DNA of 64,000 nt from a virus. Lineage: Duplodnaviria; Heunggongvirae; Uroviricota; Caudoviricetes. The stretch lies in IMG/VR virus record IMGVR_UViG_2859657292_000001; one strand, given 5' to 3'. Of this stretch, positions 3,292 through 59,687 are shown one piece after another (position 1 is the stretch's first letter; each line of letters opens with the position of its first letter). The notes under the pieces are model-generated. The model saw nothing but the letters and a program-made list of their open reading frames with translations. It searched no databases and was not told the DNA's origin. The translations under genes were made by a program, and so were the position numbers.

Positions 3292-4614
3292 ATGGAAAAA
3301 CTGATCGCCCTAAAGCACAAGCTGGATGCCATAAAAACGATGGGAACCAACGCCAAGAAAGAGGCGCTGGCCAACCTTGATGAATTTGAGCAGAGCATGG
3401 TCTCGCTAATGCTCAACCCATTCATTCGATTCGGTGTGAAGAAGTACAAAGTGGCCGAGCCACTCGATACTTCCGTACCCAGCGACCAGAAGGTAGTCGA
3501 GCTGCTGGAGAAGCTGGCGGCGCGCGAACTGACCGGGAACGCGGCCATTACTGCTGTCGAATCACTTGTTGCCTCAATGTGCGCTGACGGGCAGGACGTG
3601 TTTCGTCGCTTCCTGCTGAAAGATCCGAAAGCCGGCGTCGGCATTAGCCTGTGCAACAAGGTGTTCGAAAACCCAATTCCGAAGTTTGAGGTACAGCTGG
3701 CGTCTCCGTACAAGGAGAAAGGCGACAAATACCCATTTAAACCAAACCCAAAGGCCAAGTGGCCAATGATCGGCAGCCTCAAACTCGATGGTCTCCGGGT
3801 TATCTGCGAAGTCATCGTTGACGAGGAAGAGGTGAACTTCCTGACGCGTACCGGCAATCCGATTACGTCACTCGATCACCTTAAACCGGCCATGCTGGAG
3901 CGTGGCCGGCTCTCCGGTTTCAAGCACATCTTCTTCGATGGTGAGGGTACTGCAGGTGCGTTCAACCAGTCCGTGTCGGCGCTTCGCAAGAAGAACGTGA
4001 CAGCCATTGGTGCCGTTTACCATATCTTCGATTTCTTCTTACCGGAGTGGCGTGCTCAGGCAAAAAGCAAAGAGTACCTGAAGACCGGCATGAAGCTGAA
4101 AGATCGCCTGGCTATGCTGGTGGCGTTATTCCGCAACACTTGCGGGGAAGATTACGCGCAAGATATCCACCTGCATCCGTTCTACATCATCCATAGCCAT
4201 GAAGACTTTATCGAACGCTTCATGAAGCGCCTGGATGAGAATGAAGAGGGGGAGATGGGCAAAGATCCGGATTCTGTTTACGAGTTCAAGCGTACCCGCA
4301 GCTGGTGGAAGCTGAAAGACGAGGATTCCGAAGACGGTGAAATCATCGACTTCGAGCCAGGCGACCCGGACTCTGGCTTTGCGCATACGCTAGGCAAGAT
4401 AGTGATTCGTCTGGAGAACGGCGTCATCGTGCGTGCCAGCGGTATCAAACATAAGTACCTGGATGAGATCTGGAACAATCAGGAGAAATATCGTGGACGC
4501 ATCGTCGAGGTTCACTGCCATGAGAAAACGCCAGACGGTAGCTTACGCCACCCACGTCTGAAGTGGCCGAAATGTCTGCGAGATACCGAAGACCGTATTG
4601 GAGATAAAGACTGA
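3292..4614 (+). CDS. ATP-dependent DNA ligase
   Basis: Adenylation motif I 'SLKLDGLRV' (KxDG), with nucleotidyltransferase and OB-fold C-terminal regions. RBS 'gatggaggttaaacactaATG'. Confidence 0.75.
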   Translation: MEKLIALKHKLDAIKTMGTNAKKEALANLDEFEQSMVSLMLNPFIRFGVKKYKVAEPLDTSVPSDQKVVELLEKLAARELTGNAAITAVESLVASMCADGQDVFRRFLLKDPKAGVGISLCNKVFENPIPKFEVQLASPYKEKGDKYPFKPNPKAKWPMIGSLKLDGLRVICEVIVDEEEVNFLTRTGNPITSLDHLKPAMLERGRLSGFKHIFFDGEGTAGAFNQSVSALRKKNVTAIGAVYHIFDFFLPEWRAQAKSKEYLKTGMKLKDRLAMLVALFRNTCGEDYAQDIHLHPFYIIHSHEDFIERFMKRLDENEEGEMGKDPDSVYEFKRTRSWWKLKDEDSEDGEIIDFEPGDPDSGFAHTLGKIVIRLENGVIVRASGIKHKYLDEIWNNQEKYRGRIVEVHCHEKTPDGSLRHPRLKWPKCLRDTEDRIGDKD

Positions 4615-4790: not shown

Positions 4791-4986
4791 ACGGGAGAAG
4801 GAAACTCTGCGTGAAATCAGCCAATGGAAAGAGTTCTACGCCAACTGGAAGCCAAAGACCCGCGCCAAACTGGAACGTATGAATCTTGTCGCTAACGTTT
4901 CGCCAAAGGGATGTGTGGAGAACTATCAACTCACTGAAAAAGGACACTCACTGTTGCAGCAATTGACTGAGGCGGTGGCGTTCTGA
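4774..4986 (+). CDS. Hypothetical protein (70 aa)
   Basis: ORF track; its stop overlaps the ATG of the next gene. Confidence 0.35.
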   Translation: MIMLSKREKETLREISQWKEFYANWKPKTRAKLERMNLVANVSPKGCVENYQLTEKGHSLLQQLTEAVAF

Positions 4987-5053
4987 TGATTCCATACATC
5001 TTATTGTCTTTTGCTGGAGGCGTGGCCCTCGGCTTCAGTATCTGTCGCGATCT
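4986..5053 (+). pseudogene. 5' portion of a small membrane-protein gene (about 53 aa when intact) interrupted by the transposon; the 3' portion resumes at 11200..11281
   Basis: Conceptually removing 5054..11199 restores one ORF, MIPYILLSFAGGVALGFSICRDLVRQELKTKTLRIGKRLYRVVHETGVQK. Its start shows ATGA-type coupling with the upstream gene and its stop couples with the next gene. Confidence 0.55.
5049..5053. repeat. 5-bp target-site duplication GATCT, left copy
   Basis: Identical GATCT lies immediately outside both terminal inverted repeats, at 5049..5053 and 11195..11199. Confidence 0.8.
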
Positions 5054-5091
5054 GGGGTCGTCTCAGAAAACGGAAAATAAAGCACGCTAAG
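5054..5091 (+). repeat. Left terminal inverted repeat (38 bp) of the Tn3-family transposon
   Basis: Exact reverse complement of 11157..11194. Confidence 0.9.
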
Positions 5092-5644
5092 CGTGCGTGG
5101 AGGCTGGCACCCAGCGGTACAGCGTCGGAATGGACACGCCGAGGTTCTTGGCCACGTCCTTGGGCGGCACCCCGCTGGCCAGCAGCTTCTTGGCCGACTC
5201 GATCTTGCTGTCGGTCATCTTCGGCTTGCGGCCGCCTTTGCGGCCGAGCTGCTTGGCGACTTCCAGCCCGGCGCGGGTGCGCTCGACGGTCAGCTCGCGC
5301 TCCATTTCGGCAAGGCTCGCCATGACGTGGAAGAAGAACCGCCCGGATGGTGTGCCGGTGTCGATGGAGTCGGTGAGGCTCCTGAACTGGACACCGTGCT
5401 TGTGCAGATCGCCGACCAGATCGACCAGTTGCTTGACCGACCGGCCCAGCCGGTCGAGCTTCCAGACGACCAAAGTATCGCCTTCGCGCAGCATTTCGAG
5501 CGTCTTGGCCAAGCCAGGCCGGTCTGCCCGCGTGCCACTCACCTTGTCCTCGAAGACCTTTTTACATCCGGCCTTGCTCAAGGCTTCGCGTTGCAGCTCC
5601 AGGTTCTGATCCTGCGTCGAGACGCGCGCATAGCCAATCAACAT
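5087..5644 (-). CDS. tnpR: Serine recombinase (resolvase/invertase; Hin/Gin-like catalytic domain plus C-terminal HTH)
   Basis: MLIGYARVSTQDQ N-terminus containing the catalytic Ser, and a '...DTLVVWKLDRLGRS...FRSLTDSIDT...FFFHVMASLAEMERE' core. Its stop codon TAG lies inside the CTAAG end of the IR. Confidence 0.85.
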   Translation of the reverse strand: MLIGYARVSTQDQNLELQREALSKAGCKKVFEDKVSGTRADRPGLAKTLEMLREGDTLVVWKLDRLGRSVKQLVDLVGDLHKHGVQFRSLTDSIDTGTPSGRFFFHVMASLAEMERELTVERTRAGLEVAKQLGRKGGRKPKMTDSKIESAKKLLASGVPPKDVAKNLGVSIPTLYRWVPASTHA

Positions 5645-6198
5645 GGCTTGTCTCGCGCCCGGTCGATGCGTTCCTGCATCGCCTGCATCACTTCTTCGTG
5701 GGTGTACGATCTGGCGGTGGCGTCGGTGGCTTGCCGCAGGGCTTCCTCAACCTCGCGCGTCATCCGCTCGTAATCCTCCGGCCACAGCGCTTGCTCCATG
5801 CGCAGCGACGCCTGACCCAGCAGGTGCAGCAGGCTGAACAGCCGCATGTCGTTGGTGGCGACGATGCGCTCCCGAATCTGCTCCTGAATAGCTTCGCTAG
5901 CCCGATGCGCTTGTGGTGTGGCAGTCCCCTCGTAGTCAGCGGGGAATTCCGCTTCCTCGGCAATCCTTGCCCAGGCGCTGGCCAGCGCCTCGATGGTTGA
6001 CGTGCTCATTTCCGCCGCTCCTGTGCTCTTTGGCGAATCAACCGGCCAAGGGGCCTCGACGCGAAAACCAGCAGCATCACGCCTATCGGATACCAGGTCG
6101 AGAAGACCACCAAGGCATCGAAGGCTGGCCGTCCGGTGTTGGTAGGCAGTACGGCGGTCACAGCCATCAACCCGCCGACCGTCCAGATGATGCGCCAC
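5638..6198 (-). CDS. Hypothetical transposon cargo ORF; its true start may be the internal Met near 6003
   Basis: Its stop overlaps the tnpR start (ATGTTGA). The high-GC background inflates ORF lengths, so the N-terminal extension is doubtful. Confidence 0.25.
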   Translation of the reverse strand: MAHHLDGRRVDGCDRRTAYQHRTASLRCLGGLLDLVSDRRDAAGFRVEAPWPVDSPKSTGAAEMSTSTIEALASAWARIAEEAEFPADYEGTATPQAHRASEAIQEQIRERIVATNDMRLFSLLHLLGQASLRMEQALWPEDYERMTREVEEALRQATDATARSYTHEEVMQAMQERIDRARDKPC

Positions 6199-6518
6199 AC
6201 GTAGGGCATCACGCGGGGCACGTAGCCGTCATCGAAAGCGGTCTGGTAGTAGCGGCGCAGGCCGCGCTCGGCAAGCGCCTGGCGCTGCCGCTCCGACAGC
6301 GCATCCGTCCGGCCATACCAGCGCCGGAATGGTGGACAGCGCAGCAGCAAAGGGGTGAAGAGGATCATCACCGCCACGATCGCGACACCCCACGCCATGA
6401 CGGCGCCGGCATCGGGCCGCTTGGCGTTCTCGATCACGGGCGCGAAGACGCCCGGAGCACCGATCATCCAGAACAGCGCAATGTGCTGATGGAAGGAGAG
6501 CTTCATTTGCTCATCCAC
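6006..6518 (-). CDS. Hypothetical integral membrane protein (170 aa), transposon cargo
   Basis: Several hydrophobic segments. Same strand as neighbouring cargo genes and overlapping their starts and stops. Confidence 0.35.
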   Translation of the reverse strand: MDEQMKLSFHQHIALFWMIGAPGVFAPVIENAKRPDAGAVMAWGVAIVAVMILFTPLLLRCPPFRRWYGRTDALSERQRQALAERGLRRYYQTAFDDGYVPRVMPYVWRIIWTVGGLMAVTAVLPTNTGRPAFDALVVFSTWYPIGVMLLVFASRPLGRLIRQRAQERRK

Positions 6519-6829
6519 TTGCGCAGCAGGCGCTTTTTCAGGGAGGCGCGTTCTTGCGGGTTGCGTCCCTTGTGATTGGCGATGCGATCCGCCGTGGCGG
6601 CCTGGCGCTTGACGGGCCAGTAGGAGCGGCCATCCTTGCCCATCGACCAGACGCTGCTGGCCTGGTTTTCCAGCAGGGGCAGATGGGCGCTCAGGGCTTC
6701 GGGCGACGCGCTGGTCAGCGCCGTGCTCTCACGGGTGCGCCAGCGCTGATGCCAGAGCTTCTTGTCCTCGCGCTCGCTGCCGCAGGTCGTGTGCCCGACG
6801 ATGGGTGTTTTGCGGCGGCTGCGGCTCAT
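6503..6829 (-). CDS. Hypothetical basic protein (108 aa), transposon cargo
   Basis: ORF track only; the high GC content makes this call weak. Confidence 0.2.
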   Translation of the reverse strand: MSRSRRKTPIVGHTTCGSEREDKKLWHQRWRTRESTALTSASPEALSAHLPLLENQASSVWSMGKDGRSYWPVKRQAATADRIANHKGRNPQERASLKKRLLRKWMSK

Positions 6830-7083
6830 AACGTAGTGGTCTCCAAGAACATTCAGGACTGATCCCAGGCGTCGATGGTCAAGACCTGATCGGCAGGACA
6901 GGCGGCTACGCGGTCGGGAACTGGATGGTGTTCAGTCTCATGCCGACCCCATTCGATTGATCGCGTCGCTTGCGGCACGCTGCGACGCAAGGAGGTTTGC
7001 GACCTGGTTTAGCAGCCGTGTCCGCTGCATGTCTGTTACCTATCTCCCCGACCGCTCATTGGACCAACTCCAGAGATTGGGCT

Positions 7084-7440
7084 CTATCGCTCAGCCAATA
7101 CGAAACCGGCATTGGCTGATGCCACAACCGAGACGAACACAAATGGCTCGGTACCTGTATTTCGCGCCCCGTGCACTTGGCCCGGTCTTGCCACGGCTAT
7201 CTCACCTTCCCTGAGGGCACGAACAATCCCATTGCCCTGAAAGTAATCAGCCATTCCCGACAAAACAGTCCACGTGTCTTGGCCGTGAGGATGAATGTGA
7301 GCCGCAATTTCCTGCCCGGGATGGACATGCCAAACCACGATAATTGAGTCTCGGGTTTCAAGCACAACGGAACGAATAGGCTCGCCTTCGGACGGCTGAA
7401 CATACTCGGCTACAGAAAATATTCTCGATTCAACAGTCAT
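7084..7440 (-). CDS. Cupin-domain protein (trimmed to Met74 of the listed ORF)
   Basis: The two-His cupin motif 'HVHPGQEIAAHIHPHGQDTWTVLSG'. Its ATG is embedded in the last codons of hepT (GATGACTGTTGA). Confidence 0.55.
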   Translation of the reverse strand: MTVESRIFSVAEYVQPSEGEPIRSVVLETRDSIIVVWHVHPGQEIAAHIHPHGQDTWTVLSGMADYFQGNGIVRALREGEIAVARPGQVHGARNTGTEPFVFVSVVASANAGFVLAER

Positions 7441-7831
7441 CGGAGATCCCTCTTTCACAGTTGTCGTTACGGTCTTCATCGTCGGCATCCTGACGCACGG
7501 CGGGCAATTGCTGGAGCAACGCCGGCAGCCATTCCTGTACCGTCTCCCACACCACATCGAGGTTGATGTCGAAATAGCCGTGAGCCATGCGATTACGCAT
7601 ATTGCGCATGCTGCGCCACGGCACGTCGGCATGCGCCTGGGTGAACTCGACGTAGCCATCCATCACCTTTGTGGCCGCCTCGCCGATGACGATCAGGCTC
7701 ATGATGACGGCCTGCTGGGTGCGCTTGTCGGCCAAGAAGTCGTCCTTGGCCATCCCTTCCACGAAGCTGCGCGCATCGGTTGCGGCCTGCTGAATGTGGT
7801 CGAGGTAATCGGGCAGGCGGTTCTCGCTCAT
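7430..7831 (-). CDS. hepT: HepT-family toxin (DUF86, nucleotidyltransferase substrate-binding / RNase)
   Basis: The Rx4HxY motif 'RNRMAHGY'. Its size of 133 aa fits the family, and it overlaps the upstream mnt gene by 4 bp. Confidence 0.75.
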   Translation of the reverse strand: MSENRLPDYLDHIQQAATDARSFVEGMAKDDFLADKRTQQAVIMSLIVIGEAATKVMDGYVEFTQAHADVPWRSMRNMRNRMAHGYFDINLDVVWETVQEWLPALLQQLPAVRQDADDEDRNDNCERGISDDC

Positions 7832-8124
7832 ATCGGTTGCGCCTCCGCGAGCACCTTGGCCCGGAACTTCGGCGGCAGGTCGCCGGGAGTCAGCAGATCG
7901 ACGTCAACGCCGAGCAGCGATTTCAGTTCTTCTTCCAAATCGCCCAAGTCCAACAACGTGGCACCGGGCAGCGCATCGACCAACAGGTCGAGGTCGCTGC
8001 CATCCCGGTCGGTGCCATGCAGCACCGAGCCGAAGACGCGCGGGTTCGCGGCGCGAAAGCGGCCTACCGCTTCACGCACTGCGCTTCGCTTCATGTCAAG
8101 CACAACAGACGGTCGCATGCGCAT
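7828..8124 (-). CDS. mnt: MNT-family minimal nucleotidyltransferase antitoxin
   Basis: The 'GSVLHGTDRDGSDLDLLV' motif (GSx10DxD), a size of 98 aa, and a position immediately upstream of hepT in one operon. Confidence 0.75.
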   Translation of the reverse strand: MRMRPSVVLDMKRSAVREAVGRFRAANPRVFGSVLHGTDRDGSDLDLLVDALPGATLLDLGDLEEELKSLLGVDVDLLTPGDLPPKFRAKVLAEAQPI

Positions 8125-8276
8125 CCTTTCTTATCGAAACTCGTTGAGATGATATGCAATCAAGAATAGAATTTCAAGAACTATTTTCGAGAATCGCAAT
8201 GCCTTGATTCCCGTGCCGCGCCGGTTGCCTTGGCGGGCTTGTCACAAACCTACGTTTTCAAGAAGAAGGAAACCGC

Positions 8277-11160
8277 ATGCCCCGCCGTTCGATCCTCTCC
8301 GCCGCCGAGCGCGAAAGCCTGCTGGCGTTGCCGGACACCAAGGATGAGTTGATCCGTCACTACACGTTCAGCGAAAGCGACCTCTCCATCATCCGGCAGC
8401 GGCGCGGCCCGGCCAATCGGCTGGGCTTCGCGGTGCAGCTCTGCTACCTGCGCTTTCCCGGCGTCATCCTTGGCGCTGATGAGCCACCGTTCCCGCCATT
8501 GCTGAGACTGGTCGCCAACCAGCTCAAGGTCGGCATCGAAAGCTGGGACGAGTACGGGCAGCGTGAGCAGACCCGACGCGAGCACCTGGTCGAGCTGCAA
8601 ACGGTGTTCGGCTTCCAGCCGTTCACGATTGGCCACTACCGGCAGGCTGTCCAGTTGCTGACCGAGCTGGCCATGCAAACCGACAAGGGCATCGTGCTGG
8701 CCAGAGCCTTGATCGAGCACCTGCGGCGGCAGTCGGTCATTGTGCCCGCCCTCAACGCCGTCGAGCGGGCGAGCGCCGAAGCGATTACCCGCGCCAACCG
8801 GCGTCTCTACGACGCCTTGGCTGAGCCGCTGACGGACGTGCATCGCCGTCGCCTCGACGATCTGCTCAAGCGCCGCGACAACGGCAAGACGACGTGGCTG
8901 GCCTGGCTGCGGCAATCCCCGGTCAAACCGAACTCGCGGCACATGCTGGAACACATCGAACGCCTCAAGGCGTGGCAGGCGCTCGACCTGCCCTCCGGCA
9001 TCGAGCGGCTGGTTCACCAGAACCGGCTGCTCAAGATCGCCCGCGAGGGCGGCCAGATGACGCCCGCCGACCTGGCGAAGTTCGAGCCGCAGCGGCGTTA
9101 CGCGACCCTGGTGGCGCTCGCCATCGAGGGCATGGCCACCGTCACCGACGAAATCATCGACCTGCATGACCGCATCCTGGGCAAGCTGTTCAATGCCGCC
9201 AAGAACAAGCATCAGCAGCAGTTCCAGGCATCCGGCAAGGCGATCAATGCCAAGGTGCGGCTGTTCGGGCGCATCGGCCAGGCGCTGATCGAGGCCAAGC
9301 AAGCGGGCCGCGATCCGTTCGCCGCCATCGAGGCCGTCATGTCCTGGGATGCTTTCGCCGAGAGCGTCACCGAAGCGCAGCGGCTCGCGCAACCCGAGGA
9401 CTTCGATTTCCTGCACCGCATCGGCGAGAGCTACGCCACGCTGCGCCGCTACGCGCCGGAATTTCTCGACGTGCTCAAGTTGCGGGCCGCGCCCGCCGCC
9501 AAGGACGTACTCGACGCCATCGAGGTGCTGCGCAGCATGAACAGCGACAACGCCCGCAAGGTGCCCACCGACGCGCCGACCGAGTTCATCAAGCCGCGCT
9601 GGCAGAAGCTGGTGATGACCGACACCGGCATCGACCGGCGCTACTACGAACTGTGCGCGCTGTCGGAGCTGAAGAACGCGCTGCGCTCCGGCGACATCTG
9701 GGTGCAAGGCTCGCGCCAGTTCAAGGACTTCGAGGACTACCTGGTGCCGCCCGCGAAATTCGCCAGCCTCAAGCAGGCCAGCGAATTGCCGCTGGCCGTG
9801 GCCACCGATTGCGACCAGTACCTGCATGACCGGCTGACGCTGCTGGAAACGCAGCTCGCCACCGTCAACCGCATGGCGCTGGCCAACGAGCTGCCGGACG
9901 CCATCATCACGGAGTCGGGCCTGAAGATCACGCCGCTCGATGCGGCGGTGCCCGATACCGCACAGGCCCTGATCGACCAGACGGCGATGATCCTACCGCA
10001 CGTCAAGATCACCGAATTGCTGCTGGAGGTAGACGAATGGACGGGCTTCACCCGGCACTTCGCCCACCTGAAGTCAGGCGACCTGGCCAAGGACAAAAAC
10101 CTGTTGCTGACCACGATCCTCGCCGACGCGATCAACCTGGGCCTGACCAAGATGGCGGAATCGTGCCCCGGCACGACCTACGCCAAGCTGGCCTGGCTGC
10201 AAGCCTGGCACATCCGCGACGAAACCTACGGGGCGGCACTGGCCGAGCTGGTCAACGCGCAGTTCCGACATCCCTTCGCCGAGCATTGGGGCGACGGCAC
10301 CACGTCATCGTCGGACGGCCAGAACTTCCGCACCGGCAGCAAGGCCGAGAGCACCGGCCACATCAATCCGAAATACGGCAGCAGCCCAGGGCGGACGTTC
10401 TACACCCATATCTCCGACCAGTACGCGCCGTTCCACACCAAGGTCGTGAACGTCGGCGTGCGCGACTCGACCTACGTGCTCGACGGCCTGCTGTATCACG
10501 AATCCGACCTGCGGATCGAGGAGCACTACACCGACACGGCAGGGTTCACGGACCACGTCTTCGCGTTGATGCACCTGCTGGGCTTCCGCTTCGCCCCGCG
10601 CATTCGTGACCTGGGCGACACCAAGCTCTACATCCCGAAGGGCGATGCCACCTACGAGGCGTTGAAACCGATGATCGGCGGCACGCTCAACATCAAGCAC
10701 GTCCGCGCCCATTGGGATGAAATCCTGCGGATGGCCACCTCGATCAAGCAGGGCACGGCGACGGCCTCGCTGATGCTCAGGAAGCTTGGCAGCTACCCGC
10801 GCCAGAACGGCCTGGCCGTCGCCCTGCGTGAGCTGGGACGCATCGAGCGCACACTGTTCATCCTGGACTGGCTGCAAAGCGTCGAGCTGCGCCGCCGCGT
10901 GCATGCCGGGCTGAACAAAGGCGAGGCGCGCAACGCGCTGGCCCGCGCCGTGTTCTTCAACCGCCTGGGGGAAATCCGCGACCGCAGCTTCGAGCAGCAG
11001 CGCTACCGGGCCACGGTCAAGCCGTCGATGACGGCCTGTTGCAGTACCTGTCGCCGCTCGGCTGGGAGCACATCAACCTGACCGGCGATTACCTCTGGCG
11101 CAGCAGCGCCAAGATCGGCGCGGGCAAGTTCAGGCCGCTACGGCCGCTGCAACCGGCTTA
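8277..11160 (+). pseudogene. tnpA: Tn3-family transposase TnpA with a C-terminal frameshift or internal deletion
   Basis: A 934-aa ORF (8277..11081) whose last 20 or so residues are out-of-frame junk. The +2 frame from about 11013 continues as '...[44 protein letters not shown]' and stops at TAG inside the right IR (11158..11160). Confidence 0.8.
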
Positions 11161-11194
11161 GCGTGCTTTATTTTCCGTTTTCTGAGACGACCCC
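11157..11194 (-). repeat. Right terminal inverted repeat (38 bp)
   Basis: Perfect reverse complement of 5054..5091. Confidence 0.9.
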
Positions 11195-11199
11195 GATCT
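11195..11199. repeat. 5-bp target-site duplication GATCT, right copy
   Basis: Matches 5049..5053. Confidence 0.8.
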
Positions 11200-11281
11200 G
11201 GTCAGGCAGGAACTGAAAACCAAAACGCTTCGCATCGGTAAGCGTCTGTATCGGGTTGTTCACGAGACGGGAGTGCAGAAA
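11200..11281 (+). pseudogene. 3' portion of the transposon-interrupted small membrane-protein gene
   Basis: In-frame continuation of 4986..5053 once the transposon and one TSD copy are removed. It ends with a TGA that overlaps the ATG of the next gene. Confidence 0.5.
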
Positions 11282-11586
11282 TGAGCAATTTGACCTCTTT
11301 CGACTGGTGGCTGGCAACCTACCTCGTGGCGGCCGGCGTCGGATATGCCTTTTACATTGGTCAGTTAATCGTAAAGCTACTGCTGATCAGATTTGCCAGC
11401 CATAAACGCATAGACGACGGTCTGTGGCGCCTGGGTTCTCTGCTGGAGACTCACTACGGCGAACTGAAGGAGAACGAAACTATCACTATCCAAGCGAAGC
11501 GTTTTACGGCCATCATCACGAGAACGCCGGAACAGAAGGTGAGTTTGATCAAAAAGATAGCAACTGAACGAGTAACAGAAAAATAA
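11281..11586 (+). CDS. Hypothetical membrane protein (101 aa)
   Basis: Hydrophobic N-terminus; translationally coupled to the upstream gene. Confidence 0.4.
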   Translation: MSNLTSFDWWLATYLVAAGVGYAFYIGQLIVKLLLIRFASHKRIDDGLWRLGSLLETHYGELKENETITIQAKRFTAIITRTPEQKVSLIKKIATERVTEK

Positions 11587-12335
11587 GTATTTACTTACTT
11601 ATCTATTATGTATAAGGTTCATTTGTTTTCGTTGAGACGCGACTGTTTGAACGTTAAATATAACTGCAAACGAAGATACGTACCTGGCAGTAGCCTAAGA
11701 AGCCAAACACCAGCGAGGTCAGTTTCCAGCCTCGTCACCGAAATGGGACACACTGAGCGAGTGTGATTGCAGAACGCAGGATAGGGCATGTTGCACCACC
11801 CATGCCCTATTCGATGAAGTAACAGGATGGGCGGTTGGTTTTCCTCATTCCATTCCATCATCCCGGTTTCAGCCAGCTGACCGTCCATCCTGTTACGTCA
11901 TTTCCATTACTTATGTCGTTTAATCTTGGGTTAAAAGCGGCGACGTAACCCGGCTGGCTTGGTTAGCCAGCGCACAACGTTGAGGTCACTGTTTTTCTTT
12001 TAATCATACAGGTGATTCCACAGAGCTGTAGTGACTGATCAATATGTTGGGTCGAACATAAATCGGTTCAGTGGCCTCAACGTTGTGAAAGCAGGATTCT
12101 TTAACCCTCTGGTGAAATCATTGTTGCCTATGTAGCCCCTGGTTTCACAACATGGATGATTCCATACATCCAATAAGATCGAAGAATCTGGCGGCCATCA
12201 ACCGCCGAGAAGGATTCCAGATCTTCGCTCTATGTGAGCAAGCCACAAGCCTCGTCTGGCACTAACGTAAAGTGCAAGTTGCGGGAAAGTTCTTGGTTGC
12301 CTGGTTGTCCATGAACAAGTACCGCCGCGAATAAT

Positions 12336-12410
12336 GATGGTGTAGCTCAGTGGTAGAGCGGTTGACTGTTAATCAACTGGTCGGTGGTTCGAGTCCACCC
12401 ACCATCGCCA
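12336..12410 (+). tRNA. tRNA-Asn (anticodon GUU), includes the CCA end
   Basis: Hand-folded cloverleaf. The acceptor stem pairs GATGGTG with CACCATC. The D-arm is GCTC/GAGC and the anticodon stem GTTGA/TCAAC encloses the loop CTGTTAA, giving anticodon GTT. The T-arm is GGTGG-TTCGAGT-CCACC, followed by a G discriminator and CCA. Confidence 0.8.
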
Positions 12411-12566
12411 ACACAGCGCTGAACGGTTTGGAGTTCGCCACCACCGTCCGAACGGAAAGACTCCGCAAATGTCGCCAGACCGTTCAACGCTGTGATAGAC
12501 ACGGCAGACGTTCTTAACCATAGTGCTTCTTAGCATCGTAGTTACACTTTTTTCAGCGCAAAATCC

Positions 12567-12590
12567 AAAGGGGCTTCGGCCCCTTTTTTG
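12567..12590 (+). terminator. Rho-independent terminator (aaaggggc-ttcg-gcccctttttt)
   Basis: Perfect GC hairpin followed by a T-run downstream of the tRNA. Confidence 0.65.
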
Positions 12591-12636
12591 TTGATGGTTC
12601 TCGTCGCTTCCCACTGCTGTAATGCTATTTGTTGCC

Positions 12637-12672
12637 GGAATGAGAGGGTTAATGCTAATGTACGCGTACATT
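12637..12672. promoter_or_regulatory. Perfect 36-bp palindrome GGTTAATGCTAATGTACG|CGTACATTAGCATTAACC, upstream of phoH
   Basis: Exact 18+18 inverted repeat verified by hand. Likely a protein-binding operator or a hairpin. Confidence 0.5.
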
Positions 12673-12827
12673 AGCATTAACCAAGTTTCGATAACCGCGC
12701 AGCAACAGTCTTCCAAAGACTGAAACAATGAGTCTTGAATGTCTCATAAAAATGCAATTGATAAGTAATGACTTACCTATTATTTGTCGGTATAGTTCTT
12801 TCGGTGACTCACTTGAAAGGACTCAAT

Positions 12828-13601
12828 ATGGGAAACAAACGTAAACAGGCGCGTCGCGCAGCTCGTCAGGCACTGAAGTCAAAGCCACGCATCCACGGCT
12901 ACGAAATTGACACAATCATCGTTGACGAGCTGGCTGCCGCCCCTGCTCTGCCTCCGAAACCGAAGCGCGACAACTCTCCTCTCGAAGCGCGAAACGAGGC
13001 CCAGGCCCACTATCTCATCTCCCTCGATACCAAAACGCTAACGTTCGCCACTGGCGAAGCTGGCTGCGGTAAAACGTACCTGGCCGCGGCCGTTGCAGCG
13101 CAGCGTCTACTTAATAAGGAAGTGGACAAGATCATCGTGACTCGTCCGGTATTGCAAGCAGACGAAGATCTGGGCTTCCTTCCGGGCGACATGAGCGAGA
13201 AGTTCGCTCCGTTCTTCCGGCCCGTCTATGACGTGCTACAGAAGCGTCTGGGTGGCTCGTTTCTCGAATACTGCTTAAAGCCAGAGGTGGCCAAAGTGGA
13301 GATTGCCCCCTTCGCTTACATGCGTGGGCGCACTTTCGAAAACGCTGTGGTAATTCTGGATGAAGCTCAAAACGTGACAGCGTCACAAATGAAAATGTTC
13401 CTGACCCGTATGGGAGAAAACGTCACGGTTATCGTTAACGGGGACATCACCCAATGCGATCTTCCTGGCAGCGTCAAATCCGGGCTGGAAGACGCTATGG
13501 AGCGCTTTAAGCCGTCTGAATATGTTGGACGGATCGAGTTCGAGAGCGAGGACTGTGTACGGTCTGAGTTATGCAAAATTGCGCTTGAAGCCTACCAATA
13601 A
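12828..13601 (+). CDS. phoH: PhoH-like ATPase
   Basis: Walker A 'GEAGCGKTYLAAA' plus the PhoH core. The start was moved from the listed 12768 to 'aaaggactcaatATG'. The listed start would read through an upstream regulatory motif. Confidence 0.8.
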   Translation: MGNKRKQARRAARQALKSKPRIHGYEIDTIIVDELAAAPALPPKPKRDNSPLEARNEAQAHYLISLDTKTLTFATGEAGCGKTYLAAAVAAQRLLNKEVDKIIVTRPVLQADEDLGFLPGDMSEKFAPFFRPVYDVLQKRLGGSFLEYCLKPEVAKVEIAPFAYMRGRTFENAVVILDEAQNVTASQMKMFLTRMGENVTVIVNGDITQCDLPGSVKSGLEDAMERFKPSEYVGRIEFESEDCVRSELCKIALEAYQ

Positions 13602-13611
13602 GGAGATAAGC

Positions 13612-13815
13612 GTGACCAAAGAATATCTGCCTCACCAGCAGCGTGTGATAGAGGAACAGGAAGATCTGTCGCGCCGTATTTTCAAGCTGGAGTGCTTCAC
13701 AGCCACCGAGATTTTTAGTCGTCTCCCTCAAGTCGACCGCAACATGCTCATTAAGCAGCTGGACGCGATGAAAGCCTATGAGCTAATTCTTCGTGCCCGA
13801 ATCGCTCGTTTTTAA
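13612..13815 (+). CDS. Hypothetical protein (GTG start after AAGGAG)
   Basis: A strong SD sequence, AAGGAGataagcGTG. The listed 13522 start would overlap phoH. Confidence 0.3.
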   Translation: MTKEYLPHQQRVIEEQEDLSRRIFKLECFTATEIFSRLPQVDRNMLIKQLDAMKAYELILRARIARF

Positions 13816-26282: not shown

Positions 26283-26313
26283 TGAAATGGCCCGATTCTT
26301 TCGGGCATTTTCA

Positions 26314-27237
26314 TTAATAGTTATATATGTTATTTCTTATGATCTCTTGAATTTGCACATTGACGGGGAAACAGCTTTCCATTTCATCTTTAAAAATAGA
26401 ACTCTCACCTCTAAAGTGATATGCCAAATTTGAGAAGTAATCTAGCAGTCGGTCTAAATGAAGATCACATAGTTCCATATATTCCTGAACTACAGGGTAT
26501 TGCATGACAAGTAGTTTATTATCAGTTTTAAGTCTTAAAAATTCATCATAGTCATTAAGCAATCTATTCAAGGAATGAGGATAGGTCTCCCAGGCAACAG
26601 GGAATTTAAAATCCTCTTCCGGCAAACCTGATTCTTCAATTTCTTCATTTACTTCGTTAATGACTTTCATAAGTTCATGTTTTGAACTCGTTGCCATCTC
26701 AACAACTTCCTTGTCAAGCTCGGTCATCCATAGCTTCGACCAATCCTGCTTGTGCATTGGACGAAGACGATGCTTGTGCGATTCAAAGATAATATTAGTT
26801 TTTGAATCCTTATTTTTTCGTGCCTTCTCAGAATAGTTATCAAGGCTTTCACTATCTAAATGACGCCAGTATATTTCAGGCTCATCTTTAATATTCATTT
26901 CATTAAGACTTACAAGCACAATTACTACCGGCTCATGTTGAGAACTCCAATAGCCAAGGTTATCAAGACCAACTCTAACACTTAAACTTTCTTCCATCTG
27001 TCTTGAGGTAGTTTTAACCTGAACAGAAATAAAAGCCCCTGTTGATTTGGTGTCATCTGCAAACATTTCAACCTGAGCATCAATTCCCATGTCAACACTC
27101 AATAGTCGACAAGGCCAGCCAAAGTATCGTGATATCCAGTAGGCGAATAAATACTCCCCGGCATGTCCGTAGGCACTGGATTTTGGGTAAATCATCGCCT
27201 CTTTTGGTGACTGGTTGTTTGTCTTTGGTGATTTCAT
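26314..27237 (-). CDS. AT-rich accessory gene encoding a PD-(D/E)xK-like (DUF4365-like) putative nuclease domain plus an uncharacterised C-terminal domain (308 aa)
   Basis: 'VDMGIDAQVEMF...GAFISVQVKTT' gives a D...(E/Q)xK arrangement. RBS AAGGAattaaaaATG. GC is about 35% against about 50% in the flanks. The listed ORF 26314..27783 was trimmed because its N-terminal 182 aa overlap a better gene on the + strand. Confidence 0.5.
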   Translation of the reverse strand: MKSPKTNNQSPKEAMIYPKSSAYGHAGEYLFAYWISRYFGWPCRLLSVDMGIDAQVEMFADDTKSTGAFISVQVKTTSRQMEESLSVRVGLDNLGYWSSQHEPVVIVLVSLNEMNIKDEPEIYWRHLDSESLDNYSEKARKNKDSKTNIIFESHKHRLRPMHKQDWSKLWMTELDKEVVEMATSSKHELMKVINEVNEEIEESGLPEEDFKFPVAWETYPHSLNRLLNDYDEFLRLKTDNKLLVMQYPVVQEYMELCDLHLDRLLDYFSNLAYHFRGESSIFKDEMESCFPVNVQIQEIIRNNIYNY

Positions 27238-27363
27238 TTTTAATTCCTTGTTAAAACTCAATCTTCCCCTTTCGCCCCAAAAATGTCTACCGCCAATCAT
27301 GGCAGTAACCCTCCATTTGTTTGATATAATCAGATACATAAAAGTAAGCTGGAACCTATCAAT

Positions 27364-40128: not shown

Positions 40129-42041
40129 AATTTCTAAAGCTCCAGGTTGAGAACTTCATGGCGTTAGCCAGCGCCGAAGTTGAGTTAGACCAACGCGGTC
40201 TGGTGCTCATTCAGGGTGTTAACAGTGGCGACTCTTCCGCTGCCAGCAATGGCGCGGGCAAATCGACTTTGATGAACAGCCTGATGTGGTGTCTGTATGG
40301 CGAAACTGCGCATGGCGTCAAAGGTGACGACGTGCTCTCTACAGGCCACGAGAAAAACTGTCGCGTGATGGTGACTGTTGAGGATGAAGGAAAGCGTTAC
40401 GCCATCATTCGCCACCGCAAACACAAAGAGTTCAAGAACCGGCTGATCGTCCGTGGCGAAGACGGTGATATGACCAAAGGCAAAGACACACTGACGCAGG
40501 AGTTCGTTGAACGCCTGATTGGTGCATCGAAAGAGGTGTTCATGGCGTCCATCTACGCCAGTCAGGAAGCAATGCCAGATCTGCCTGGTATGTCCGATAA
40601 GAACCTCAAAACCATCGTTGAAGAAGCCGCTGGCGTCGACCGGTTAACGCGAGCCTATGCCATTGCTCGCGAGCGTGCTAATGCAGCTGCCGCACGCATG
40701 GATGTTACCAAATCCAAAATGGACGCCTGTCTCACGCTTATCGAGACCGCGCAGTCAGAGATTGAGGCGGCCAAAGCGTCCTCTGATAGTTGGGAACGCG
40801 ATCGCGGCGAACGTCTGGACAAGGCCCGCGTCGATTTGGCTGGCGCGGAGGTAACGCTGTCTGAAGTCGTGATGGAAATTCGCTCGCTGCCGGAACAGAT
40901 CCGGGATACGGAAAACGCGATTGCTGGCGAACGCAGCAAGCTGGCCTCCAAAGAAGAGCATGACGCCAAACTGCTGAAGGTGCGCGGTGCGATTACGGAG
41001 ATCCGCTCAAGCATCCGCACTTCAGAAGCGGCACAGAACGAGTCGATGAACCGTGCTCGCTCGTTTAAAACCAAAGCAGAAGAGGTCAGCACAAAGGTCG
41101 GAGCACCTTGTGTTACGTGCGGAAAGCCCTACTGCGAAGAAGATTTGTCCACCGTGAAGGAGAGTTTCATTGAACAAGCGCGTAATGAGATCGGCCAGGC
41201 GCAGGCATCAGCAGCGGCAGTGGCTCAACACAAAGCTCGTCTTGAGAAAGCGCTCGGCATCGAGTCTGCACTGGTCGCAGCCACACCCGACGTCTCAGAA
41301 ATCATCGCCAGAATCGAACGTCTGACCAATGAGTTAAGTGCATTACGCCATCGCGAACGTGAGGTCGCGGCCGTCGAAGCGATGGTGGCGCGGGCGCGTA
41401 CTGACGTGAATCGCATCATGGCAGAGGTAAACCCATTTCTGGCTGTCATTAAGCGCCATGAAGACAACCTGGCTGCCAATAAATCTAATCATGCAGTACT
41501 TAAAAAAGAGTTAAAAAGCATTCAGGAACAGGCTCTGTTGCTGGAGAAAGCTCGCCAGGTTTACTCCCCAGCTGGCGTGCGTTCACACATCCTGACTTCT
41601 GTTACGCCTTTCCTGAACATCAGGACTGCGGAGTATCTCAACACGCTGTCGGACGGCAATATCGTTGCCGAATGGTCGACAATGGAGACAACGAAGAAAG
41701 GCGAGTATCGCGACAAATTCAATATCAGCGTGACCAAAACAGGTTCCAGCAAATCCTTCCAGACGTTGTCTGGTGGTGAGAAGCGTAAGGTACGCATTGC
41801 GTGCTCTCTTGCCTTGCAGGATCTGGTTGCCAGTCGTGCCAGTAAGAATATCGAGCTGTTTATCGGGGATGAAATTGACGACGCGCTCGACACTGCCGGT
41901 CTGGAGCGTCTCATGGGGATTCTGGAAGCCAAAGCGCGTGAACGCGGCACAGTGATGATCATTTCCCACAAAGAGATGAAATCGTGGTTCCGGGAAACCA
42001 TCACAGTCGAAGTCAAAGAGGGTCGCAGCTATGTCGTTTAA
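40125..42041 (+). CDS. sbcC: SbcC/Rad50-family ATPase (T4 gp46-like)
   Basis: Walker A 'ASNGAGKST', zinc-hook 'CVTCGKPYC', the ABC signature 'LSGGEKRKV' and Walker B 'FIGDEIDDALD'. Confidence 0.8.
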   Translation: MKFLKLQVENFMALASAEVELDQRGLVLIQGVNSGDSSAASNGAGKSTLMNSLMWCLYGETAHGVKGDDVLSTGHEKNCRVMVTVEDEGKRYAIIRHRKHKEFKNRLIVRGEDGDMTKGKDTLTQEFVERLIGASKEVFMASIYASQEAMPDLPGMSDKNLKTIVEEAAGVDRLTRAYAIARERANAAAARMDVTKSKMDACLTLIETAQSEIEAAKASSDSWERDRGERLDKARVDLAGAEVTLSEVVMEIRSLPEQIRDTENAIAGERSKLASKEEHDAKLLKVRGAITEIRSSIRTSEAAQNESMNRARSFKTKAEEVSTKVGAPCVTCGKPYCEEDLSTVKESFIEQARNEIGQAQASAAAVAQHKARLEKALGIESALVAATPDVSEIIARIERLTNELSALRHREREVAAVEAMVARARTDVNRIMAEVNPFLAVIKRHEDNLAANKSNHAVLKKELKSIQEQALLLEKARQVYSPAGVRSHILTSVTPFLNIRTAEYLNTLSDGNIVAEWSTMETTKKGEYRDKFNISVTKTGSSKSFQTLSGGEKRKVRIACSLALQDLVASRASKNIELFIGDEIDDALDTAGLERLMGILEAKARERGTVMIISHKEMKSWFRETITVEVKEGRSYVV

Positions 42042-57060: not shown

Positions 57061-57228
57061 GGCTATTGCATGAAATGGAGCTTCCTCAATACCCTAATAA
57101 TATGGATTGAATATTGTATTTTACTTATGACGGCTGGACTTTGTAATTTGTTTTTTATTGAGTTTTCATCTTCGTAAAACTTTCGATAAAAACGCAGGCT
57201 ATAATATCTTATTAGCCTGCGTTGTGAT

Positions 57229-59298
57229 TTACTTACACTTGTTATTTAAATAGCTTCTAATATATAGATCAAGCAACTTGCTTAGCTGTTTGTTAACTTC
57301 ATCATGTTTTTGAGGGCTACGCATTTTAGAAAGATGTCGCTCAAGAAATTTTGAAGGCAACTTTATAACCAATTTGTTATGGTTGTCATAAAGTTCTTTT
57401 ACCCAGATTAGCTCTTTATGTTTTTCTAAGTTTTCAGAGTGATCCCTATTTATAATGAAAGCTAGCCTACCATAATCTTTAAATAAATATGAATTTACTT
57501 GTCTATATTCATCAGCACCTAACGTTTTGTAGTTTTTGATTTCGAATACAACTTGTCGAGATTGGTAATCAGTCAATATCCTTTTCCAGACAGGTGTGTC
57601 GGCAAGGTTTGTTGCAATAATGTCTCGCTGCTGTAGACCATTTTTGTTTGAATGGAGTTCAATATTGGTCAAATTCGTCGCAAACAATATTTTAATAGCT
57701 TTCAAAGCCCATGCTTCAAAATCAACAGCCCCTTCCTTACCTTCTGGGATATTATTTAATTCTTGAAGAAGAGCACCGATCCGTTGTTTTCGTTGTTCTT
57801 CTGATACGGAGCTAACTTCGATATCGTATTCATCGTGGATATCGTCAGCTGTTTCAGGAGTAATGTCTGACTCATGAACACTTAATGCAAGCCAATAGCA
57901 AGGATGTAGCAGAAGCTTGGAGCCTGGTGTAAACTCTTTTTCTGGTTCTTTTCCATCATGACAAAACACATATGATGAGGACTGCTGATTGTATAATCCA
58001 AAAAAACCAACACTATACAAACGTTGGATCACCTGAACAGGACCTTCAAACAAAAGGATGTCCTGTAATTTCATTTTGTCATTAACTTCTTTTATATCAA
58101 ATGCTTGGCTTATTATTTCAGAGGCTTCCGCGATGGTAAAATCTGGTCTTTTATTGCCAAAAAGCGATGTAAATATATCTAGTGCAGGGAATACATTTTC
58201 ATATTCTTTTAGTAAGTCGTTAAGCCTGTTTTGAGATATTGTGTTTGCAGTGGCTTTTATGTCATCAATTATTATTTTTGTGCGATCGTGAGTTGCGGCC
58301 CTCAGGAAAGCATCATTTAATAATACCAAAATATCTCTCGGTCTATATAATGTAAGCTTAAGTGCTTCTTTAAAACCCGTATTTGACTGTAATTCATTAG
58401 CGGTGTACGCATTCCAAACTCGCGTGTTATTTTCTATGGTTGAGTTAAATGCAACTCTCATTCTGTTACAAACCAAATTGAAGAGATTGTATTCGTCCCA
58501 ATGTAATCTTAATACCTGTCCTTCAATGTTTCTGGTAAAATCAGGGTCCATTTTAGATATGGCTCTATGGATATTGTCTCTAACGAAAGCAAATGCGATA
58601 ACTTTTTCTTGCAAATTTTGTTTTATATCAATAACAGACTGAATGAAACCGTCAACGATAGCAACCCCTAAATCATCTGGAGTGTATCCTTCATCTAGCC
58701 TGTCAGCAAAAATAACGAATTGATGGTTTGATTTTGAAATAGCTTCGAATAAAACCTCTTCTAGTAAATCTAATTCAAAATTATCTGATAAATCTGATAT
58801 TCTTGTAGCCGGTTTAACATCTTTTCCAGTATCAAGGATAGATATTAATTTTTTCCTTATTTTACCACTTATGTTTTGTCTTTTAGCTCCCCAAGATAAT
58901 AAGTGTTTCTCTACACTTTTATAGTCTAGATCATTTTTCATCCTATAGTGGCTTGCTATTTCGGAAAGTAATTCCATATAAATCGCATAGCGCCAAGCTA
59001 GTTTGCTTCCGGCTTTAATATGCAAATAATTTTCACCGAAAAGTGAGACAACATCTCTTAGACCAATAATTTGTTCTTCAATAGGGCTAATGGTCATCAC
59101 ATGCGTTTTAGGTTTTGCGTGCCAATGTTTTGACAGCATATGCACTAATGCACTTTTGCCAGTGCCTCTGCGACCTACAACTATGCATCGATCATACGAC
59201 TCTAAAAGAGCTTTATAATCAGTTGTTTGCCAGAATGAGGCTTCAAGCATTTTGGCATCGTGTTCTGCTCTGATATCCCCTAGAACGTTACCTTTCAT
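57229..59298 (-). CDS. AT-rich accessory gene encoding a 689-aa P-loop NTPase with a C-terminal PD-(D/E)xK-like nuclease-type domain
   Basis: Walker A 'GRRGTGKSAL', Walker B-like 'VIFADRLDEGY', a 'YRPRDILVLLNDAF' sensor-like segment and a C-terminal 'QQRDIIATN...RQVVFEIKNYK' (D...ExK). GC is about 33%. The gene stands alone. Confidence 0.55.
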   Translation of the reverse strand: MKGNVLGDIRAEHDAKMLEASFWQTTDYKALLESYDRCIVVGRRGTGKSALVHMLSKHWHAKPKTHVMTISPIEEQIIGLRDVVSLFGENYLHIKAGSKLAWRYAIYMELLSEIASHYRMKNDLDYKSVEKHLLSWGAKRQNISGKIRKKLISILDTGKDVKPATRISDLSDNFELDLLEEVLFEAISKSNHQFVIFADRLDEGYTPDDLGVAIVDGFIQSVIDIKQNLQEKVIAFAFVRDNIHRAISKMDPDFTRNIEGQVLRLHWDEYNLFNLVCNRMRVAFNSTIENNTRVWNAYTANELQSNTGFKEALKLTLYRPRDILVLLNDAFLRAATHDRTKIIIDDIKATANTISQNRLNDLLKEYENVFPALDIFTSLFGNKRPDFTIAEASEIISQAFDIKEVNDKMKLQDILLFEGPVQVIQRLYSVGFFGLYNQQSSSYVFCHDGKEPEKEFTPGSKLLLHPCYWLALSVHESDITPETADDIHDEYDIEVSSVSEEQRKQRIGALLQELNNIPEGKEGAVDFEAWALKAIKILFATNLTNIELHSNKNGLQQRDIIATNLADTPVWKRILTDYQSRQVVFEIKNYKTLGADEYRQVNSYLFKDYGRLAFIINRDHSENLEKHKELIWVKELYDNHNKLVIKLPSKFLERHLSKMRSPQKHDEVNKQLSKLLDLYIRSYLNNKCK

Positions 59299-59687
59299 GT
59301 ATTACCCTTTTAGCGTTAAAAGGAGGGGGCAATGGCCTTTGTAGACTTGAGTTCCATTTGCCTGATGCCATCCTCATCAAACTTCTTCCGTTTTCCCGAA
59401 GAGGGGGGAGATTAATGTATCATTTTTAACGGGTTACACAAGAATATGACTTCTTAATCTAGGAGCTGAGCGTTCTTCAGGAAAAAAATAAGCATGAATG
59501 ACAGCGGTTGTAGCCTTAGATTTTAAGGTGGTTACGTTCTTAATTTATTGAATTACCAATTAACTTTGAACACTATCAATTTAGCGTCTCTAAGCGTCTC
59601 TACAACCCCTGTGAATACTGCTTTTACGCCTTTTCAACTTTGGGGAAATAACACCAATAAGAAAACAATTTGTTTAATAGTGTGATC

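Follow-up and report, generated by a model that had tools for sequence, protein, structure and literature searches.

The DNA analyzed here, a 64,000-nt stretch of the virus record IMGVR_UViG_2859657292_000001 (hereafter the window), carries at positions 5054 to 11194 a 6141-bp copy of the already described cryptic Tn3-family (Tn21-subgroup) transposon ISPa38, or "TnPa38". The copy splits a 50-codon homolog of SSU5_047 in the backbone of an SSU5-like phage-plasmid, and its transposase gene, tnpA, is frameshifted by an 82-bp deletion. With a probability of about 0.8, we favor the reading that this copy entered the phage-plasmid by transposition, that the deletion came first, and that the transposase was supplied in trans to a non-autonomous element. 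The feature is real, ordinary, and already known in its parts, namely a known transposon, a known insertion hotspot, and a known phage-plasmid family.

An earlier reading of this DNA (the original prediction) had described perfect 38-bp inverted repeats bracketed by a 5-bp direct repeat, GATCT. Both were found, the inverted repeats being one base longer, at 39 nt, than described. The boundaries of the element and the two parts of its target gene are:

4986 to 5053, plus strand: 5' part of the target gene, 68 bp of the disrupted SSU5_047 homolog, the final 5 bp being the left target duplication
5049 to 5053, no strand: left target-site duplication GATCT, read from the sequence
5054 to 5092, plus strand: left inverted repeat (IRL), GGGGTCGTCTCAGAAAACGGAAAATAAAGCACGCTAAG(C), 100% complementary to 11156 to 11194
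11156 to 11194, minus strand: right inverted repeat (IRR), a perfect inverted repeat with 5054 to 5092
11195 to 11199, no strand: right target-site duplication GATCT, read from the sequence
11200 to 11284, plus strand: 3' part of the target gene, 85 bp of the SSU5_047 homolog

The ends are of the 38-bp type, with GGGG at the start and TAAG inside, and a perfect inverted repeat of 39 nt together with a matching 5-mer cannot be explained by chance. GC content is 63.2% within the element and 50.1% in the remaining window, in line with the contrast of about 64% and 50% noted earlier, and a high-GC donor would fit both this composition and the fact that the element was named from Pseudomonas. Excising positions 5054 to 11199 and rejoining the flanks yielded a 153-bp, 50-codon open reading frame (ORF), MIPYILLSFAGGVALGFSICRDLVRQELKTKTLRIGKRLYRVVHETGVQK, 97 to 98% identical to SSU5_047 of phage SSU5, the product of which is a predicted small protein of 50 amino acids, and to STY_RS25580 of pHCM2 from S. 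Typhi CT18. The empty site had been expected to read as a single uninterrupted small gene, and this 153-bp gene was seen in both SSU5 and pHCM2. In SSU5 the site reads exactly ...GTCGCGATCTGGTCAGG..., while pHCM2 is one base off (GACCT for GATCT). Across PLSDB, the empty site was unbroken in 226 of 239 matching plasmids and occupied in only nine. The segment is an insertion that splits the SSU5_047 homolog and, given the empty site in those 226 related plasmids and in phage SSU5, it was inserted rather than ancestral, as had been proposed.

The surrounding DNA agrees with the SSU5/pHCM2-like phage-plasmid backbone that the original prediction had suggested. A 25-kb segment (window 12000 to 36999) was 96.5% identical to phage SSU5 across 71% of its length, the flanks were 98% identical to pHCM2, and the annotated genes of the window are those of the half of an SSU5-like phage-plasmid that serves replication and nucleotide metabolism. 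Over its first 17,194 bases the window was identical to CP027605.1, a 118,226-bp IncFIB plasmid (MOB-suite) of an Enterobacter cloacae complex strain. The insertion lies between the ligase gene and phoH. In SSU5-like phage-plasmids, resistance-gene insertions all occur in one locus (Pfeifer et al. 2022, PMC9600943), for which the figure legend lists PhoH and DNA ligase as neighbors. Some of these insertions adjoin Tn3-like transposases, and, once mitomycin C had been applied as inducer, virions were found to contain E. cloacae SSU5-like elements with transposon and integron regions (PMC9600943). Because the ligase-phoH region is the published insertion locus, both the location and the kind of insertion are those expected for the SSU5-like family. 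The one-locus insertions and the virion recovery also make the earlier remark that transposons are uncommon in virion-packaged genomes outdated for phage-plasmids (PMC9600943). The present case shares its backbone family and the ligase-phoH locus with those transposon- and integron-bearing phage-plasmids. However, whereas they carry resistance genes, this insertion has none, holding only a toxin-antitoxin pair and cryptic ORFs.

Assignment to the Tn3 family, also predicted earlier, is borne out by Tn3-type DDE transposase domains, a serine resolvase, 38-bp GGGG...TAAG repeats, and a 5-bp duplication. The gene set comprises tnpR, three ORFs without family matches, a cupin gene, a HepT-like gene, an MntA-like gene, and a divergent tnpA. 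All 6141 bp were 100% identical to many plasmid copies from Klebsiella, Enterobacter, Citrobacter, Serratia, and Raoultella, and where tnpA is intact the Prokaryotic Genome Annotation Pipeline (PGAP) names its product "Tn3-like element ISPa38 family transposase". The element is already known, since a 2025 paper (PMC12466754) describes ISPa38 and names FDAARGOS_1306, one of the copies examined here. In that paper the element is 6455 bp long, has repeats of 39 bp and eight genes plus a putative res site, and is given the proposed name TnPa38; K. pneumoniae plasmids, among them FDAARGOS_1306, are noted there to hold ISPa38-like copies flanked by 5-bp duplications.

Two copies served as references for alignment, the intact one of pKOR-ab4d (6223 bp) and that of pFBAOT6 (6455 bp). 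Relative to the former, the window copy differs by the 82-bp deletion and two single-nucleotide polymorphisms (SNPs), and by nothing else; relative to the latter, by two SNPs and two indels. Like ISPa38, which was first named from Pseudomonas aeruginosa, the window copy has 39-bp repeats and the same gene content and gene order; leaving aside the two indels, approximately 99.97% of its nucleotides match those of the pFBAOT6 and pKOR-ab4d copies. Unlike the 6455-bp form, it is 6141 bp long, lacks the 232-bp segment between the cupin gene and hepT (at window 7460, and exclusive to pFBAOT6 among the three aligned copies), and lacks 82 bp of tnpA, with a resulting frameshift. Its private SNPs, at 5717 and 6727, are both non-synonymous and lie in ORFs of no known function.

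Comparison with Tn21-type transposons (the "TnAs3 family" of PGAP, relatives of Tn21 and Tn1696) showed identical terminal 38 bp, the IRL having been compared directly with the repeat of one such copy, a TnpA 93% identical, a tnpA stop codon within the repeat in the intact form, and a 5-bp duplication. In contrast to those elements, in which tnpR lies directly 5' of tnpA and in the same direction, tnpA and tnpR here lie one at each end and are oriented outward, the passenger genes falling between the probable res site and tnpR, and the cargo is different. A literature search on the repeat sequence returned only a paper on an unrelated Ralstonia transposon. The name Tn1403 was considered and not used, as identity was unconfirmed and the literature calls Tn1403 a Tn1013 relative with a different cargo module.

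The transposase gene is broken near its 3' end, where three features overlap or adjoin:

8277 to 11081, plus strand: frameshifted tnpA, Tn3-family DDE transposase, 934 amino acids instead of 988, with residues 1 to 912 native and the last 22 out of frame
11008 to 11012, plus strand: junction of the 82-bp deletion, with one GGCCA here and two, 82 bp apart, in intact copies
11009 to 11161, plus strand: orphaned 3' end of tnpA, 51 codons (GHGQAVDD...RPLQPA, then stop) in another frame, ending at the TAG within IRR

Intact copies read ...CTACCG GGCCA GCGGCC...TTGCGT GGCCA CGGTCA..., and the window retains a single GGCCA. The lesion is a microhomology deletion with a length that is not a multiple of three, and it causes the tnpA frameshift. 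The encoded protein equals the intact 988-amino acid TnpA up to A912, whereafter 22 frameshifted residues lead to a stop at 11079 to 11081; the TAG of IRR (11159 to 11161) is reached only by the 51-codon remnant. Of the earlier statement that both recombination genes end with TAG inside the repeats, the part concerning tnpR stands (its ORF is intact, with a TAG at 5087 to 5089 within IRL) and the part concerning tnpA does not. Nor can the element be called intact-looking, as it had been, because tnpA is frameshifted and the C-terminal 76 residues of its product are gone.

What remains of TnpA matched Pfam DUF4158 and DDE_Tnp_Tn3 (E=2e-134 and 1e-56), the latter across positions 1 to 337 of 389, and NCBIfam transpos_Tn3 at 1212 bits (cut-off 500) across positions 2 to 898 of 954. 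Intact TnpA aligned with Tn4430 TnpA (PDB 7qd8) at E=3e-236, placing the frameshift at Tn4430 S911. The catalytic triad (Tn4430 D679, D751, and E881) and the switch helix (897 to 908) are kept. Lost are the long scaffold helix and the C-terminal dimerization tail, 76 conserved C-terminal residues in all, and in the alignment this segment is strongly conserved between the intact protein and Tn4430 TnpA. According to the structural work in PMC9579193, few parts of Tn3-family transposases are as well conserved as the scaffold region, and the C-terminal tail, a second dimer interface, contacts cis-DNA and holds the dimer closed around the target. The truncated transposase is most likely inactive, judging from its sequence and, because the scaffold helix and dimerization tail are lost, the element is most likely non-autonomous. 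In most RefSeq records of the deleted form, tnpA appears to be treated as a pseudogene by PGAP, since it is absent from the gene tables of those records.

To follow the deleted variant, a 49-bp probe seeding only on the deletion junction was run against PLSDB. The exact junction occurred in approximately 63 plasmids; at least 837 had the intact junction with an identity of 99% or higher. All nine PLSDB plasmids with an occupied SSU5-type site carried the deleted form and none the intact form. The complete deleted form was also found in Klebsiella IncFIB/IncFII plasmids, two bases (the two SNPs) off the window copy, in the ars operon at the expected place of arsH and flanked by a clean duplication, TGACG. 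Plasmid unnamed1 of FDAARGOS_1306 (NZ_CP070089.1) is one example: like the window, it holds the 6141-bp deleted variant, two bases different, with a clean 5-bp duplication. Unlike the window copy, it sits at the ars operon site with TGACG, on a conjugative plasmid instead of a phage-plasmid. The passages of PMC12466754 consulted here note this copy without mention of the tnpA frameshift. Two additional right-end junctions of the deleted form, AACCC... and TTTCT..., were recovered. An intact 6223-bp copy occupies the arsC-arsH spacer of NZ_CP029143.1 with the duplication TTGAT; the same ars operon has been struck twice in related Klebsiella IncF plasmids, the intact and deleted copies lying about 400 bp apart.

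Many other copies were incomplete, their repeat interrupted by IS4321 or IS5075 and their sequence cut by IS26 or IS6100. Of the copies that have the deletion junction but lie elsewhere than at the two complete sites, most were of this kind: when six more plasmids with the junction were sampled for complete copies, every one proved to hold a fragment with an IS26 or IS6100 cut and a right repeat interrupted by IS4321 or IS5075, and no further duplication was obtained. More generally, many copies from Klebsiella and Serratia have IS4321 or IS5075 inserted in a terminal repeat, one of them in both, and most such copies are truncated on the left by IS26 or IS6100. The exact deletion junction had no match in a scan of one genome per species and none in IMG/VR, and the element was in no record of the phage collection searched. 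The exact left junction (flank plus IRL) was present in two IMG/VR contigs, IMGVR_UViG_2675903385_000002 and IMGVR_UViG_2671180246_000001, both of which are uninformative on the deletion or on packaging because they end inside the repeat. Both contigs stop approximately 100 to 200 bp from the left junction, which suggests draft assemblies broken at the repeated transposon.

Under the reading we favor, the element would have entered the ancestor of a small Enterobacter/Citrobacter SSU5-like clade by replicative transposition of the Tn3 type. The target would have been cut with a 5-bp stagger and joined by the transposase to the 3' ends of the 38-bp repeats; replication would then have generated a cointegrate, and TnpR would have resolved it at res (probably 8125 to 8276), leaving a single copy between GATCT duplications and the 50-codon gene split. 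A single 82-bp deletion event would have preceded this insertion, the defective element then transposing further on a transposase from a co-resident Tn21-type element or from an intact ISPa38 recognizing the same repeat. We place the deletion first, and the transposase in trans, because a clean duplication of 5 bp flanks the deleted variant at each of at least two different sites. Genes 80 to 95% identical to tnpA are present in thousands of Enterobacterales plasmids. A Tn21-type "TnAs3 family" element would be a plausible helper, with identical 38-bp ends and a 93%-identical TnpA, and close relatives within the Tn21 subgroup are able to complement one another in trans. That the defective derivative has transposed repeatedly on such a borrowed Tn21-type transposase (into the phage-plasmid, the ars operon, and at least two other junctions) is a proposition to which we give about even odds; that Tn3-family transposases can do without their scaffold helix and C-terminal tail in vivo is less likely. 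Four observations weigh against the reading preferred here. Besides the deletion, no SNP connects deleted copies at different sites, so recurrent deletion or recombination between copies could also account for them; the sole other Tn3-family transposase seen on the plasmid is of Tn3/Tn2 type; the truncated TnpA retains its three catalytic residues and all DNA-binding domains; and no resolvase subsites of res were recognized in the sequence.

The first of these observations bears on an unlikely but credible alternative, in which an intact, autonomous ISPa38 inserted itself and lost the 82 bp later, in place, the deletion in Klebsiella being independent or copied by recombination. Two 5-bp GGCCA repeats flank the deletion, an arrangement that allows replication slippage to happen more than once, no shared derived SNP unites the deleted copies, and the far commoner intact copies would supply recombination partners. 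Yet the intact form was in none of the nine plasmids with an occupied SSU5-type site, the exact deletion junction recurs in those approximately 63 plasmids, including at least two complete sites with their own duplications and several other junctions, and a microhomology of 5 bp is too weak to make the identical deletion likely to recur in a GC-rich element of 6 kb. Quite improbable is a second alternative, that the 934-amino acid transposase is still active and the element autonomous. Retention of the DDE residues, the four DNA-binding domains, the main dimerization domain, and the switch helix would allow it, as would the clean duplications of the deleted variant at more than one site, but the lost segment is strongly conserved and includes the scaffold and the tail contacting cis-DNA (PMC9579193), and most RefSeq records appear to have the gene as a PGAP pseudogene. 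That the segment is ancestral to the lineage, or was gained by IS26-mediated or homologous recombination, was rejected on the exact restoration of the empty site: many other copies do lie in IS26/IS4321-rich resistance regions, but here the boundaries fall exactly at the repeats with the 5-bp duplication outside, removal of the element and one GATCT restores the SSU5_047-like ORF, the site is empty in 226 related plasmids and phage SSU5, and IS26 is at neither end.

The analysis adds a documented cryptic, toxin-antitoxin-carrying Tn3-family transposon to the ligase-phoH region of SSU5-like phage-plasmids, on a vehicle that could in principle be transferred by infection. Beyond the original prediction, it supplies the name of the element, a confirmed empty site, and a correction of "intact" to a frameshifted tnpA in a probably non-autonomous element. 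The widespread 6141-bp variant has a broken tnpA and is not to be counted as active by annotators or in surveys. Given its clean duplications at several sites, this variant is a convenient natural test case for trans-mobilization within the Tn21 subgroup and for the need for the TnpA C-terminal tail.

A second ISPa38-type element was present at a different site, beside phoH, in further SSU5-like plasmids (NZ_AP025794.1, CP021897.1, CP074286.1, OW849307.1, OW849523.1, NZ_AP025769.1, and NZ_CP019891.1). Among these phoH-adjacent copies, detailed examination covered that of NZ_AP025794.1 (23000 to 32000), which holds a class 1 integron (dfrA15, qacEdelta1, and sul1) and IS6100, is without hepT and mntA, and has a tnpA with an internal deletion of approximately 2.1 kb in which the 82-bp segment is kept.

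The resolvase and passenger genes of the window copy, all on the minus strand, and the spacer that separates them from tnpA are:

5087 to 5644, minus strand: tnpR, serine resolvase, 185 amino acids (Pfam Resolvase E=7e-49, HTH_7 E=9e-9)
5638 to 6009, minus strand: passenger ORF, 123 amino acids, a coding sequence in related records, with T98 here versus N elsewhere (SNP 5717)
6006 to 6506, minus strand: hydrophobic passenger ORF, 166 amino acids, a coding sequence in related records
6503 to 6829, minus strand: passenger ORF, 108 amino acids, a coding sequence in related records, with S35 here versus R elsewhere (SNP 6727)
7084 to 7440, minus strand: cupin-domain passenger gene, 118 amino acids (Pfam Cupin_2 E=5e-13)
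7430 to 7831, minus strand: hepT-like gene, HEPN/DUF86 RNase toxin, 133 amino acids (Pfam HepT-like E=9e-27), with the Rx4H motif RNRMAH
7828 to 8124, minus strand: mntA-like nucleotidyltransferase antitoxin gene, 96 to 98 amino acids (Pfam NTP_transf_2 E=4e-9), with a GSX10DXD motif
8125 to 8276, no strand: AT-richer spacer between mntA and tnpA, separating the divergent passenger/tnpR set from tnpA; probable res and promoter region

The 123-, 166-, and 108-amino acid passenger ORFs had no family match in Pfam or NCBIfam. The HepT-like protein scored 93.6 bits in Pfam (cut-off 23.5) and 37 bits against NCBIfam HepT_toxin, under the 60-bit cut-off. Its MntA-like partner scored 37.1 bits against NTP_transf_2 (cut-off 21) and 36 bits against NCBIfam MntA_antitoxin, likewise under 60 bits, and in translation its GSX10DXD motif reads GSVLHGTDRDGSDLD. 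The mntA-like gene adjoins hepT upstream with a 4-bp overlap. These Pfam matches and motifs identify the pair as of the HepT/MntA type, and the earlier mention of toxin-antitoxin cargo was well founded. The pair, the cupin gene, and the three ORFs are all intact, and the predicted HepT/MntA pair may give the phage-plasmid a post-segregational-killing or stress function. Within the element, window position 7460/7461 is a hotspot of recombination or of indels: the 232-bp insert of the 6455-bp form at this point alters the C terminus of HepT (128 versus 133 amino acids), and in the NZ_AP025794.1 variant positions 7461 to 8106, with hepT and mntA, are replaced by approximately 115 bp.

The res site is probably the 8125 to 8276 spacer, next to tnpA. 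A search for resolvase-binding subsites and inverted repeats in the spacers at 6830 to 7083 and 8125 to 8276 gave nothing convincing. We place res in the latter because two relatives have a res-hunting element at exactly window 8217(-8221), within the mntA-tnpA spacer. In NZ_CP010386.1, with the same GATCT site and the same deletion, this is a tniA/B/Q transposon (position 3411/3412 of the examined segment); in NZ_AP025794.1 it is the class 1 integron (positions 2134 and 7467 of segment 23000 to 32000), the flanks of which overlap by 5 bp. Elements of the Tn5053/Tn402 family target the res sites of Tn21-type carriers (PMC7765201). The overall layout resembles that of Tn3, with divergent tnpA and tnpR, but with six passenger genes between the probable res site and tnpR.

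Several further features of the backbone were recorded. CP027605.1, at 118.2 kb, is approximately 15 kb above the 103.3-kb genome of phage SSU5, an excess that puts the packageability of the plasmid in question, and its Tn3/Tn2-type transposase (10759 to 13764) lies approximately 0.5 kb upstream of window position 1. A tRNA-Asn (GTT) gene is located at 12336 to 12410, 1.1 kb to the right of the insertion, and its SSU5 equivalent is at the same relative position. Two accessory genes were found on the strand opposite to their neighbors, one annotated as a DUF4365 domain protein at window ~26300 to 27350 (record 40608 to 41633) and the other as "HypX" at window ~57200 to 59300 (record 71523 to 73592).

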